A DNA stretch of 64,000 bases from Bacteriovoracia bacterium (GTDB taxonomy: Bacteria; Bdellovibrionota; Bacteriovoracia; Bacteriovoracales; Bacteriovoracaceae), in assembly GCA_046570105.1 (NCBI GenBank), contig JBKHVI010000001.1, forward strand, positions 64,001 to 128,000, given 5' to 3'. Of the stretch, positions 10,273 to 64,000 are shown piece by piece. Every line of letters starts with the position of its first letter. Within the stretch, counting starts at the first letter, position 1. The notes below the pieces were generated by a model. The model searched no databases and was not told the origin of the DNA. It was given only the letters and a program-made list of their open reading frames with translations. Made by a program: the position numbers and the translations under genes.

Positions 10273-11067
10273 ATGCGCGCACAAGACAGATCAAATCTCG
10301 TTAAGGTCGGCATCTTTGTTACATCCTTAACTATCGTGCTAGCGATCATGATTACCGCCATCGGGAAAGAGTCCTCGATGTTTAGTCCTAAGGCGATCAT
10401 CAAAGCGCGCGTAATCAACGCAGAAAATCTCAAAGTCGGCTCTACCGTTGAGCTAAGAGGTCTTCGTATCGGCCATGTGGAAGAAATTAGAATTGTGGGC
10501 TACCAGTCTGTAGAAATTCTCATCAATATCATCGCTGAAAACTTGCGCTGGATTCGTAAAGACAGCAAAGTCGCTATCAGCAATGCTGGTTTGGTGGGTG
10601 ACAAGTATCTTGAGATTCAGGGAGGCACTGAGGAAGGCGGAGACTTTAACCCCGAGTCTGATGTACTGCTGTCAGAGCCTAGCCTCGACTTCAAAGCTAT
10701 TGCCACTAAAGGTGGCAACATTGCAGACAAAGCAGATCGCGTCCTCGACAAATTAGAATTGATGTTAGTAGCGATAGATGCCAAGAAACTTGCCGTGACC
10801 GTCGATGGACTCGCTAAGACTGCCGACAATCTTGGAAAAGCTACTGGCCCTTTAGTTGCAACTTCTAAAAAGCTCGAAAGTGCTTCAGAGCGCTTTGATG
10901 CTGTCATGACTCGTGTGCAGAAAGGCCCCGGCACCGCTCACTCGCTCGTTTATGACGATGGTCTTTACGAAGATCTGCGCAAACTGATGGGCGGTGCTGA
11001 ACGCAACTCCATTATCAAGTACTTCATCCGCGAATCAATTAAGAAGGCCCCGCCCAAAGAAGACTAA
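10273..11067 (+). CDS. mlaD: MlaD/MCE-family protein
   Basis: N-terminal TM; MCE motifs LKVGSTVELRGLRIGHV and GLVGDKYLEI; helical tail. Confidence 0.92.
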   Translation: MRAQDRSNLVKVGIFVTSLTIVLAIMITAIGKESSMFSPKAIIKARVINAENLKVGSTVELRGLRIGHVEEIRIVGYQSVEILINIIAENLRWIRKDSKVAISNAGLVGDKYLEIQGGTEEGGDFNPESDVLLSEPSLDFKAIATKGGNIADKADRVLDKLELMLVAIDAKKLAVTVDGLAKTADNLGKATGPLVATSKKLESASERFDAVMTRVQKGPGTAHSLVYDDGLYEDLRKLMGGAERNSIIKYFIRESIKKAPPKED

Positions 11068-11088
11068 AAGGTGTCACTCACCTTTTGG
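11064..11088. repeat. REP-like palindrome CTAAAAGGTG-TCACT-CACCTTTTGG
   Basis: 24 nt (11066-11089) identical to 61455-61478 next to the RAYT gene; hairpin between convergent genes. Confidence 0.8.
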
Positions 11089-61450: not shown

Positions 61451-61479
61451 GGCCAAAAGGTGTCACTCACCTTTTGGCC
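61451..61479. repeat. REP-like palindrome GGCCAAAAGGTG-TCACT-CACCTTTTGGCC
   Basis: Perfect 12-bp stem; contains the RAYT stop codon; copies at 11064 and (inverted, variant) 63329. Confidence 0.85.
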
Positions 61480-62089
61480 TTTTTAATGTCTCGAACAGTT
61501 TAATTTTCTTTTTATTAATATCAAACTGCCAACGTCTCAGCCCCTTGCGAATAATCGCTTCACCTTCATTTTCAATTCTCTCATTCAGCCACAGCAACTC
61601 GGCTGCCTCTCCACCTAACTCCATATTCACTCGACTATGTAATGGAAACGGCACTCGCGAAGTGAGTGTTGAATAAGGATAGAATTCCACTCTTTCAACC
61701 ATCCGCGCACGTAATGGATTTTGGTAAATATAGCGATAGACTTGATAATAATAAGCCTGATTCTCAATCAAGCTCCATTTATAGCGTCCTCCCCACAAAT
61801 GATTTGTTCCATCAGCCTTTCTCATAATTTTCACGGCCGTATTTCGCATCAATAGATGCATCACCTGATCTAGATTACATCGCGGCGTTTGAACCAACAG
61901 ATGGAAGTGATTATCCATCAAGACAAATGCATGAATACAAATCCCAAAGCGCTCTTGAACATTTTTAAGTTCATCGACAAAAATTTTCCAAACCTCGTTC
62001 ATCTCAATCGGATAGAACTGCTTGTCATTCGTTCGAGCTGTTACGTGGTAGGTATGAATATCACTGCGAATCAAAGCATTTCTCGGCAT
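61463..62089 (-). mobile_element. REP-associated tyrosine transposase (RAYT; HUH Y1_Tnp family)
   Basis: MPR start, YHVTARTN, HAFVLMDNHFHLL (HUH), YIYQNP.RA (catalytic Tyr), YPYS; flanking palindromes; no tnpB. Confidence 0.92.
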
Positions 62090-62157
62090 AATTACTCCTT
62101 GTAACCCGTTACCTCTTGGCGCTTTTTTGCAGCACCAAGCGGTGTTAAAATTAAAAC

Positions 62158-62268
62158 GGGAAGGAGTAAGCCTGAGGGATTCCCCCCAGACCTAGGTGCT
62201 TGTGACACCAAGAGGTTCACAGAGAACGTGGAACTGACAAAACATGGAGCGTGAGCATGCCCCTTCCC
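62158..62268 (-). ncRNA. Candidate structured ncRNA, array unit 1 (111 nt)
   Basis: GGGAAG.../...CUUCCC closing stem, two internal hairpins, GYUC-repeat loop, 3' U-tract. Confidence 0.65.
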
Positions 62269-62434
62269 GCCTCTCTTGTTGCAAAAAGACGGGAAATTTT
62301 CCGAACACTAACTATTGAATTTTCAACAGGAGTCGTCTCACTGCGTGAGAGATTTTTTCCACTCACATGTCCGTTTTTTACCCGCGACTTGTTGGAGATG
62401 GATGAGACTTACTTCGAGTGATAAAATTAAAAAA

Positions 62435-62545
62435 GGGAAGAGGTAAGCCTTGAGAGATTCCTCTCAAGACCCAGGTGTGAGCACACCAAGAGGTTTAAAA
62501 AGAACATTGAACTGGCAGAGCGGTGAACTTGAGCTACCTCTTCCC
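62435..62545 (-). ncRNA. Candidate structured ncRNA, array unit 2 (111 nt)
   Basis: Same fold with compensatory changes (GGGAAGAGGU/ACCUCUUCCC; CUUGAGAG/CUCUCAAG). Confidence 0.65.
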
Positions 62546-62709
62546 GCCTCTCTTGGTGCAAAGAGACGGGAAAATTTCTACGACTCAACTATTCAAAAAA
62601 ATTCATCCATCACTTCACTGCGTGAGAGATTTTTTCCAATCACTTGTCCGATTTTTACCCGCGACTTGTTGGCGATAGATGAGAGTTCAATCAAGTGATA
62701 AAATAAAAA

Positions 62710-62820
62710 GGGAAGGAGTGGGCCTGAATTATTTAATTCAACCCCAGGGTGCTGTCACACCCAAGGGGTTCACCTGAACTTGGAGCTGGATGAACGTGGA
62801 GCGTGGACCTGCCCCTTCCC
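62710..62820 (-). ncRNA. Candidate structured ncRNA, array unit 3 (111 nt)
   Basis: Same fold with compensatory changes (UGAAUU/AAUUCA; AACCCC/GGGGUU; GGGUG/CACCC). Confidence 0.65.
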
Positions 62821-63018
62821 GCCTCTCTTGGTGCAAAGAGACGGGAAAATTTCTACGACTCAACTATTCAAAAAAATTCATCCATCACTTCACTGCGTGA
62901 GAGATTTTTTCCACTCACATGTCCGATTTTTACCCGCGACCTGTTGGAGATTGATGAGAGCTGGAAGAAAATAATTGGCACTAATTCAATAAAGAACTTT
63001 CTCGTATCTCACACACAT

Positions 63019-63061
63019 AAAAACTAAAAAGCCGAACGTAATTGATGTAACTACGTCCGGC
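63019..63061 (-). terminator. Intrinsic terminator of the candidate sRNA
   Basis: GCCGGACGUAGUU/AAUUACGUUCGGC 13-bp stem (two G-U) then UUUUUAGUUUUU. Confidence 0.75.
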
Positions 63062-63240
63062 TCTTCTATGACGTCCAATGAAGGACGCCTTTACCAAAAG
63101 GAAATTCATGGAAGAGTTAGCGCGGGTTCTGATCCTCGTTATCTTGACGATACAGCTTGCTGTATTGCTCAAGATAATTTGATCGGATTTAGAGGGAGGG
63201 GAAAGCAGCCTCTCCCTCACCGTTTTAACTTCCAATCCTC
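63022..63240 (-). ncRNA. Candidate ~215-nt structured sRNA
   Basis: TTGATT-N18-TATGCT promoter (63276-63247); several strong stems including a 3-way junction; terminator at 63031-63061 plus U-tract. Confidence 0.55.
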
Positions 63241-63280
63241 AAATTCAGCATAGCTCTATTTGAATAAGCGAATCAAACTT

Positions 63281-63313
63281 AAAAAAAAGGCCCGGGTTAA
63301 ACCCAGGCCTTTT
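63281..63313 (-). terminator. Intrinsic terminator after the OMP gene
   Basis: GGCCUGGGUU/AACCCGGGCC followed by U8. Confidence 0.85.
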
Positions 63314-63328
63314 CTACCTAAAAGTGTA

Positions 63329-63353
63329 CCTAAAAGTGCATGACACCTTTTGG
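63329..63353 (-). repeat. Variant REP-like palindrome (inverted), CCAAAAGGTG-TCATG-CACTTTTAGG
   Basis: First 13 nt identical to 61453-61465 in opposite orientation; adjacent 12-bp tandem duplication of its arm. Confidence 0.75.
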
Positions 63354-63358
63354 AAATT

Positions 63359-64000
63359 TTAGAACTTGTAAGTCATAGCGACGCGAGCGAGTAGACGGTT
63401 TGAATTCAAGATTCCGTTACTTGGTGCTGTGTTATTGGTCGCAGTAGCAGCCGAAGTCATCAGCAATCCGTCGATAGCGAAATCACCAAACTTCAAAGTA
63501 GCACCTGAACGGACAGATGTTGTATTCGCTTTGGTACGCTTCTTGTCTGGGTTCTGAGCGACAACGTTTGTGTTAACCAATGGCAATAGGTCTTCATCGT
63601 AGTCGTTGTCTTGCTCATTGATTATACTCTGAGAGATTGAACCACGAAGAGTCAGCCATGAAGCAGCGTCCACTTCTAAACCAACTACGACTGGAACAGC
63701 GTAATCATCAATCGTTGCTTTGCCGTCATCTTTGGTATCAAGCTCACGCTTGTTCAACACATAAGATACTTTATAGAACAAAGTCGCTTTGTCGTTAAGC
63801 TTAGTCTCGCGACCGTAACCCACGATAAAACGATCAGTTTGCGCATCAGCTTCACCTGTATAAGCAGGAGCTGCAGCTGTCGTTGCAACTTGAGAGACAG
63901 AACTCTCTTGTTCCCAAGCAGCGTGGCGCCAGAAAGCAAATACGCTTGCCTGATTGTCGATACGGTATGTTCCACCTAATTCGTAACCAAGCTTACCCTT
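63359..64000 (-). CDS. Outer-membrane beta-barrel protein (major OMP-like), C-terminal part; truncated by window edge
   Basis: Frame open to the edge (214 codons); amphipathic strands PVVVGLEVDAASWLTLRGS, GATLKFG; C-terminal MTYKF. Confidence 0.8.
   Translation of the reverse strand, partial: KGKLGYELGGTYRIDNQASVFAFWRHAAWEQESSVSQVATTAAAPAYTGEADAQTDRFIVGYGRETKLNDKATLFYKVSYVLNKRELDTKDDGKATIDDYAVPVVVGLEVDAASWLTLRGSISQSIINEQDNDYDEDLLPLVNTNVVAQNPDKKRTKANTTSVRSGATLKFGDFAIDGLLMTSAATATNNTAPSNGILNSNRLLARVAMTYKF

Follow-up and report, generated by a model that had tools for sequence, protein, structure and literature searches.

A stretch of 64,000 nucleotides (nt) of the Bacteriovoracia bacterium assembly GCA_046570105.1 (contig JBKHVI010000001.1, positions 64,001 to 128,000, called the window in the following) contains three tandem copies of an element with the predicted fold of a structured RNA, located on the minus strand upstream of a gene for a transposase that resembles the REP-associated tyrosine transposases (RAYT; REP, repetitive extragenic palindromic). 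The fold of the tandem elements was confirmed by sequence comparison as genuine and is kept by compensating changes in related species. As judged from the genomes searched, the elements are a new family of structured RNAs in tandem arrays, which is restricted to part of the Bacteriovoracaceae and has no match in Rfam. In the preferred explanation, the units would be tandem structured small-RNA genes, and the last copy, next to the transposase gene, would also be the leader of this gene. This dual role is given somewhat more credence than doubt.

Fold and covariation of the tandem units

The array at positions 62130 to 62962 is composed of three head-to-tail units of about 276 nt with spacings of 277 and 275 nt. 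On the minus strand, each unit begins with an upstream region of about 115 nt, which is followed by a hairpin, H0, a core, and an A/U-rich tail (Table 1). A base-by-base check of the coordinates bore out the three cores of exactly 111 nt each that an original prediction, made from the letters of the window, had placed there (GGGAAG starts at 62158, 62435, and 62710; CTTCCC ends at 62268, 62545, and 62820). Folding of the minus strand yielded −51.0, −44.0, and −50.2 kcal/mol for units 1 to 3, with z values of −3.7, −2.9, and −3.0 compared to dinucleotide shuffles, while the plus strand with z values of −1.7, −3.7, and −2.0 was less consistent.

The conserved fold comprises a closing stem, P1, of 9 to 11 bp, an unpaired segment of about 45 nt, a 4-bp hairpin B, and an 11-bp hairpin A. 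In an alignment of 33 rows from the own genome, four congeneric genomes, three further genera of the family, and metagenome contigs, the helices P1, B, and A were paired in 95.2% of 763 cells. When the 3′ partner was slid by 1 to 3 columns as a control, 49.9 to 57.2% of the cells remained paired. Changes on both sides were present in 20 of the 24 pairs (154 cells), and none of 500 shuffles matched the observed values on any of five pairing measures. Pairs were also counted with 21 copies, for which the 497 paired cells were composed of 440 Watson-Crick, 36 G-U, 4 A-C, and 17 other pairs. The 36 G-U compared to 4 A-C pairs indicate that the folded strand is the minus strand of the window, and they agree with the assertion in the original prediction that the non-Watson-Crick pairs are mostly G-U on this strand.

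Most of the helices proposed in the original prediction were recovered. The closing stem GGGAAG...CUUCCC is changed on both sides in unit 2 (GGGAAGAGGUA / UACCUCUUCCC), and hairpin A possesses the GAAU/AAAU loop, both as stated. Of the two stems proposed for hairpin B, the inner one, GGUG/CACC, was retained. The outer one (ACCU/AGGU and equivalents) was rejected because it paired in 60.3% of the cells compared to 57.9% in shuffles, with 78 of 500 shuffles reaching 60.3%, which is barely above the shuffles and thus no conservation. The 3′ bases of this supposed outer stem form the lower half of the 11-bp hairpin A, which is paired in 94% of the cells and changes on both sides in all 11 pairs. 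Addition of homologues, the step at which the original prediction had allowed for a loss of the covariation, made it stronger. Its more general claim, that selection acts on RNA structure and that the units are paralogous noncoding RNAs and not neutral duplications, is supported by the occurrence of the family in at least four genera, by the covariation, and by the conserved unpaired blocks.

Distribution of the RNA family

BLAST found four copies in the own genome, the fourth on contig C55, and further copies in three congeneric genomes. A covariance model, first built from 14 copies and then rebuilt with an identical family-wide result, matched in 6 of 151 sampled genomes of the family, which span 4 of 69 genera, in 5 of the 11 genomes of the genus, and in none of 127 genomes of other families in a phylum-wide sample. 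All four copies of the own genome match one model with 103 to 130 bits; their cores are 62 to 75% identical to each other, or 62 to 69% among the three units of the array. A degenerate DNA pattern matched 37 metagenome stretches, 11 of which carry model matches, and it had no match in a viral contig collection. With Rfam 15 at gathering thresholds, no match was obtained in the whole window, and for positions 62050 to 63400 with E values of up to 10, the sole match to the array was a chance-level microRNA with 17.1 bits compared to a gathering score of 90. Literature searches on small RNAs of Bacteriovorax and Bdellovibrio yielded no description of this RNA. From its distribution and covariation, the family is one that has been inherited and selected, and not a recent burst of repeats. 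It combines unusually clear covariation with a variable copy number, and since one record named Bacteriovorax stolpii (L048) carries a two-copy array of the RNA, experiments with a cultured species may be feasible.

A second type of locus has no adjoining RAYT gene. It is represented by the single copy on C55 of the own genome (G000, L004:1494-1612, minus strand) and by three tandem copies on contig C111 of G007 (L031). The copy on C55 is located downstream of a gene for a beta-barrel-like protein of 198 amino acids (aa) and is convergent with a gene whose product ends in a Cys-rich tail. An open reading frame (ORF) inside the RNA of this locus type was discarded, as it is without a conserved start codon.

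Hairpin H0, unpaired segment, and tail

Hairpin H0 abuts P1 on the 5′ side, and its last three G residues are the first three G residues of P1, so that both structures cannot form in full. H0 was assessed by folding each sequence separately, because MAFFT left the 5′ strands out of register and a column-wise count was thus not possible. A hairpin of this type that reaches the GGG of P1 was predicted in 24 of 28 distinct upstream regions, with energies between −8.5 and −20.4 kcal/mol within the genus. Several types of pairs occur per position, for instance, C-G, U-G, and U-A or U-A and G-C. The many U-G pairs among them argue for H0 being RNA, which would put the start of transcription upstream of H0.

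About 45 nt between P1 and hairpin B are unpaired and contain the conserved blocks GYUCAnGYU-n3-YGYU-n4-CAnYU-n4-GYU, followed by CYYUUGG. Conserved unpaired sequence is what would be expected of a binding surface. At the other end, P1 is followed by 4 to 6 U residues in all three units of the window. The U-rich tract after each core, as described in the original prediction, is therefore present in these units but is not a constant of the family: at least four T are found within the first 8 nt after P1 in 21 of 32 copies. A terminator scan did not call P1 because the loop of this stem is too long.

Upstream regions and evolution of the copies

Between units 2 and 3, the 142 nt before the core, H0 included, have an identity of 95.1% (62543 to 62685 compared to 62818 to 62960), but the core has one of only 61.6%, and this contrast is also visible in the two RAYT-proximal units of G002. 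With the fold being kept, these values exclude a uniform neutral decay after duplication. Judged by the identities, there is either homogenisation or strong constraint of the upstream regions or a rapid divergence of the cores within the limits of the structure, which suggests gene conversion or strong upstream constraint together with fast divergence of the cores. Near-identical upstream regions next to strongly diverged cores make the array a compact case for the evolution of duplicated RNA genes.

Blocks of the upstream region occur at a fixed distance from H0 also in other genomes and across genera. Genes for sigma-54-dependent small RNAs of the Qrr or GlmY/Z type have a GG at −24, a GC at −12, and a start about 12 nt downstream. 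Read by eye, one group of copies displays TGGCCC at −24 but TCTCA/TTTCA at −12, and the other group, to which the window belongs, displays TTGCA at −12 but TTCC at −24. In such by-eye comparisons, neither the sigma-54 nor an RpoH-like nor an extracytoplasmic-function-like interpretation of the blocks fitted all copies. Each upstream region also contains the hairpin CUCAC-GCA-GUGAG (62336 to 62350 in unit 1) with a second GUGAG 12 nt away, which could be the binding site of a regulator. On the plus strand, this hairpin is a weak terminator-like site. A related block, GUGAGUG..GCGCAGU, is present in the upstream region of G002.

Linkage to the RAYT-like gene

The RAYT-like gene starts 58 nt after unit 1 on the same strand. 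Its product reaches 77.2 bits with the NCBIfam model REP_Tyr_transpos, which has a cut-off of 80, and the nearest named records come from metagenome-assembled genomes (MAGs), one of the Bacteriovoracaceae with 95% and one named Bacteriovorax stolpii with 51% identity. The linkage was evaluated for 16 distinct loci, which were two each from the own genome and G007, one each from G002, G010, G003, G069, G066, and G135 (the last matching L126), and L048, L127, L130, L134, L143, and L145. In 12 of these, the last RNA copy is succeeded by a RAYT-like gene in the same orientation after a gap of 55 to 75 nt, and the identity of its product to the protein encoded in the window ranges from 95% down to 38%. 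The remaining four have no RAYT-like gene downstream; three of them (C55 of the own genome, the second locus of G007, and G135) face a convergent gene, and the fourth then has a permease gene.

Starting from the gene, the RNA was present only at the loci of the two closest homologues (95 and 51% identity) of the 44 tested from 78 fetched. Within the genus, 5 of 7 genomes with a RAYT homologue contain the RNA compared to none of the 4 without one, these being small numbers from related and incomplete genomes. Two near-complete congeneric assemblies, G008 and G005, are without RNA or RAYT matches; since their contigs end at this locus, absence of the array cannot be read from them. The end of contig C10 of G008 and the start of contig C1 of G005 (L162 and L163) are at or inside the porin-like gene described below.

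The sigma-70 consensus scan yielded no site in the leader of the RAYT-like gene (62090 to 62157). Without a recognisable promoter of its own, the gene would depend on read-through from the last unit. The steady position of the RNA before a RAYT-type gene may provide a handle on the expression or use of domesticated transposases. A literature search on RAYT and small RNAs yielded no association of this kind.

About 35 nt after most RNA copies, an element CGCCAAGAGGU..CGGGU is present (for example, at 62110 to 62123, 62380 to 62400, and 62655 to 62675). It forms part of the RAYT leaders elsewhere, where it reads GUCGAAAAGGU..GCGGGU, and it resembles one arm of the REP-like hairpin of the genome. 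This hairpin, GGCCAAAAGGTGTCACTCACCTTTTGGCC, is located directly 3′ of the RAYT-like gene (61451 to 61479) and again at 11066 to 11086, and it is likely the REP-type element of the RAYT in the window. The 29-nt hairpin contains a 21-nt core, AAAAGGTGTCACTCACCTTTT, with 7 exact copies in the genome. In the terminator scan it also had the shape of a two-way terminator, and beyond the array, at 63329 to 63353, there is a degenerate copy. The spacer as a relic of the RAYT 5′ end was not supported, as the local alignments scored 28 and 36, while shuffles scored 27 on average and 48 at most.

Proposed function and alternative explanations

If the units are small-RNA genes, each of them would give rise to a discrete minus-strand RNA of about 130 to 160 nt, transcribed from its own conserved upstream region. 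The lone copies elsewhere, the fold kept in every copy, and the upstream blocks at a fixed distance from H0 argue for each unit being such a gene. The RNA would act via the conserved unpaired segment and the CU-rich element, which would either base-pair with mRNAs or bind a protein. In addition, the last copy is probably the leader of the RAYT gene: read-through past the weak signal of P1 plus U in this unit would supply the RAYT-like transcript, and the array may thereby also set the expression level of the RAYT-like gene.

Several results weigh against this explanation. A run of at least four T follows P1 in just 10 of 32 copies, so that discrete termination of each unit is uncertain and an array-long precursor possible. 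The sigma-70 consensus scan of both strands of 62090 to 62960 produced no site, and the −24 and −12 elements for sigma-54 were never both present in any group of copies. The unpaired segment paired no better than shuffles with the start of the porin-like gene (7 copies, z of −0.2 to −2.4; G010, whose contig ends there, was left out) or with the 5′ region of the RAYT gene (24 copies, z of −2.6 to +1.7). The pair counts given above overstate the independence of the observations, because the alignment had been fitted to the structure of the model and its rows are related.

Alternatively, the RNA may be mainly a cis-acting leader of the RAYT gene, similar to an attenuator or riboswitch, which was tandemly duplicated. 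Alternative pairings of the purine tract AAGAGAGGCGGGAAGGGG with the 5′ strand of H0, a CCYCUU element in the middle, or the 3′ strand of P1 would then decide whether termination occurs or the ribosome-binding site is sequestered, or whether read-through reaches the gene. The constant distance and orientation of the RNA with respect to the RAYT start in 12 of 16 loci at identities of 38 to 95%, the missing promoter-like site between the last unit and the gene, and the mutual exclusion of H0 and P1 are in agreement with such a leader. A riboswitch or attenuator should always be found in the 5′ untranslated region of one gene function, however, and 4 of the 16 loci have no RAYT-like gene, three of them not even a co-oriented downstream gene; moreover, only the last copy of an array can serve as leader, yet the fold is kept in all of them. 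A helix in which AAGGGG of the 5′ strand of P1 pairs with the CCYCUU element in the middle was proposed by RNAalifold. It is possible in every copy and slightly better in cognate than in non-cognate pairs (−8.02 versus −7.44 kcal/mol; 16 of 5000 permutations), but it pairs in 92.9% of the cells compared to 90.1% in shuffles and in 95.2% when slid by one column, and was thus regarded as weak and register-unspecific. In unit 1, CCUCUUGGUG and the leader element at 62110 to 62123 can form a helix of 12 bp (−21.0 kcal/mol). Pairing of the mid with the downstream element was without a cognate advantage across the family (−10.85 versus −11.21 kcal/mol; 4102 of 5000 permutations) and was set aside as being strong in unit 1 alone. 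Read by eye, the 3′ strand of P1 with the tail in the window (CUCCUUCCCGUU) is complementary to the leader from AACGGG to AAGGAG including the Shine-Dalgarno sequence, but CU-rich strands pair with any ribosome-binding site. A function mainly as a leader is conceivable in view of these points, albeit rather unlikely.

The proximity to the transposase gene permits two further explanations. In one of them, the array would be a DNA repeat cluster of the RAYT-like transposase, similar to REP elements or bacterial interspersed mosaic elements (BIMEs), with the fold being of importance not in RNA but in single-stranded DNA bound or moved by the enzyme. The units directly adjoin the gene and occur in tandem clusters of several copies, with a few copies at other sites of the genome, the RNA occurs within the genus only together with a RAYT homologue (5 of 7 genomes versus 0 of 4), and an element like one arm of the REP-like hairpin of the genome follows each unit. 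Tens of near-identical copies of a palindrome of 20 to 40 nt would be expected in this case, whereas the genome contains just four copies, with cores of 62 to 75% identity and a multi-branch unit of 111 nt with conserved unpaired sequence. The compensating changes across genera point to long vertical inheritance under selection, and a separate, typical REP candidate is present, the one with the core AAAAGGTGTCACTCACCTTTT and a copy 3′ of the RAYT gene. The excess of G-U pairs suits RNA better than DNA, although a fold of one DNA strand would also be asymmetric. A repeat cluster is thus improbable. In the other explanation, the RNA would be the dedicated partner of a domesticated RAYT-type HUH enzyme, so that array, REP-like element, and gene form one module, and the folded RNA or its single-stranded DNA form would control or recruit the enzyme or be its substrate. 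The same-strand linkage in 12 of 16 loci at RAYT identities down to 38%, the co-occurrence within the genus, and the element resembling a REP arm after each copy speak for this proposal, which is nevertheless considered improbable. If it were true, this RNA would be the first RNA component for REP/RAYT, comparable to the RNAs of other transposase-derived proteins.

Finally, the spacers might code for small proteins on the plus strand with the cores as by-products, since open frames of 56, 82, and 74 codons cross each spacer in the same frame. In tblastn searches, good matches were limited to the nearest relative, with 47 to 72% amino acid identity at a DNA identity of about 78%. The matches in the array at the second locus of G007 were weak (31 to 37% identity, E of about 1e-5), and in G002, G010, G003, and the record named Bacteriovorax stolpii, matches occurred only where they overlapped the RNA core. 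No frame is consistently open across the arrays of seven loci, and the conservation resides at the level of nucleotides and pairing. Coding spacers or no function at all, taken jointly, are very improbable. The small-RNA genes with a last copy that serves also as RAYT leader are the explanation preferred here.

Comparison with known systems

Tandem "sibling" small-RNA genes such as OmrA/OmrB, PrrF1/PrrF2, and AbcR1/AbcR2 are described in PMC4211561, and NsiR1 of heterocystous cyanobacteria, with 12 tandem copies beside hetF that have their own promoter each, in PMC4030482. The array in the window shares with both groups the homologous small-RNA genes head to tail in one intergenic region, a copy number that differs among relatives with some copies at distant loci, and a divergence of the sequences with the fold being kept; like NsiR1 with hetF, it keeps a fixed neighbour gene. 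Siblings require at least two homologous copies of the same fold in one genome, and four are present here. Sibling small RNAs consist mostly of a seed and a terminator hairpin, whereas the RNA of the window is larger, multi-branched, and closed by a long-range stem. Unlike in these examples, the neighbour that is kept is a gene for a RAYT-like transposase, in the same orientation and at a distance of 55 to 75 nt.

Hallmarks of REP elements and BIMEs are an imperfect palindrome of about 20 to 40 nt and many near-identical, dispersed copies. The array differs from them in copy number, in the identity of its copies, and in not being a short single palindrome. Together with their RAYT gene, such elements have been named a REPtron (PMC3479197). 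Similar to a REPtron, structured repeats are clustered here beside a gene of the Y1 (HUH) RAYT type and co-occur with a RAYT homologue within the genus. Copies of REP elements flank their RAYT gene; in the present case, the array is located 5′ of the gene in 12 of 16 loci, and a different hairpin is located 3′.

The tnpA gene of the insertion sequence IS200 in Salmonella has a structured 5′ leader and a small RNA derived from this leader. Control of a transposase by two small RNAs and a structure in the 5′ untranslated region is reported for ISPpu9 in PMC8450116. Here too, a structured RNA is located right upstream of a transposase gene and could both limit this gene and act as a small RNA. 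Sequence similarity was neither looked for nor seen, the RAYT-type gene is chromosomal, in conserved synteny, and not part of a mobile insertion sequence, and the RNA is duplicated in arrays and also occurs without the gene. In type III toxin-antitoxin systems (ToxI/ToxN), near-identical RNA repeats of about 36 nt are followed by a weak terminator and an endoribonuclease gene. The array resembles this arrangement in that tandem RNA repeats directly precede a co-oriented protein gene, with a weak terminator-like signal in between, but its units are divergent and 276 nt long, and the downstream protein is similar to Y1_Tnp/REP_Tyr_transpos and not an endoribonuclease.

Coordinates and neighbouring genes

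Table 1. Features of the array and of the adjacent RAYT-like gene in the order of transcription of the minus strand
Feature	Position	Strand	Remarks
Unit 3, upstream region, presumed promoter/regulatory region	62846..62960	−	aligned across the three units; no site in the sigma-70 scan
Unit 3, hairpin H0 (CCCGUCUCUU / AAGAGAGGCGGG)	62818..62845	−	predicted −17.7 kcal/mol
Unit 3, core with P1, conserved unpaired segment, hairpins B and A	62710..62820	−	covariance-model match 62699-62822, 103-109 bits
Unit 3, A/U-rich tail (UUUUUAUUUUAUCAC)	62695..62709	−	
Unit 2, conserved upstream region	62571..62685	−	
Unit 2, hairpin H0	62543..62570	−	
Unit 2, core with P1 altered on both strands	62435..62545	−	covariance-model match 62424-62547, 106-107 bits; duplex energy of unit 2, −20.3 kcal/mol
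Unit 2, A/U-rich tail	62420..62434	−	
Unit 1, upstream region	62294..62408	−	77-78% identity to units 2 and 3
Unit 1, hairpin H0	62266..62293	−	predicted −15.1 kcal/mol
Unit 1, core, closest copy to the RAYT-like gene	62158..62268	−	covariance-model match 62147-62270, 122-130 bits
Unit 1, tail and RAYT-like leader	62090..62157	−	contains CGCCAAGAGGU..CGGGU (62110-62123) and the Shine-Dalgarno sequence AAGGAG
RAYT-like Y1 (HUH) transposase gene, 208 aa	61463..62089	−	Pfam Y1_Tnp, E = 1e-9

The product of the gene upstream of the array (63359 to 64000 and beyond, L166) is a protein of about 410 aa that carries a signal peptide and has the C terminus ...MTYKF. The protein looks porin-like and has no match to a Pfam family. 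A similar gene end (...MTYRF) precedes the porin-like gene, so that two such genes are arranged in tandem, and the porin-like neighbour is retained in L047, G002, G010, and L134.

Between this gene and the array, a 34-codon ORF, MKDAFTKRKFMEELARVLILVILTIQLAVLLKII, is located on the plus strand at 63078 to 63182. Its product has a charged head and one hydrophobic helix and may be either a small membrane protein or that of a type I toxin-like gene. Hairpins and AAAGGAAA are found before the ORF and a terminator-like hairpin after it, while a terminator-like hairpin of the minus strand (63066 to 63026) is antisense to its 5′ part. The ORF also occurs at L047:1247-1351 (minus strand), L144:2534-2638 (plus strand), and L023:1835-1939 (minus strand), and its protein sequence is conserved in the nearest relative and in G010, where the ORF is positioned between two RNA units on the strand of the RNA, whereas in the window it is upstream of the array and on the opposite strand.

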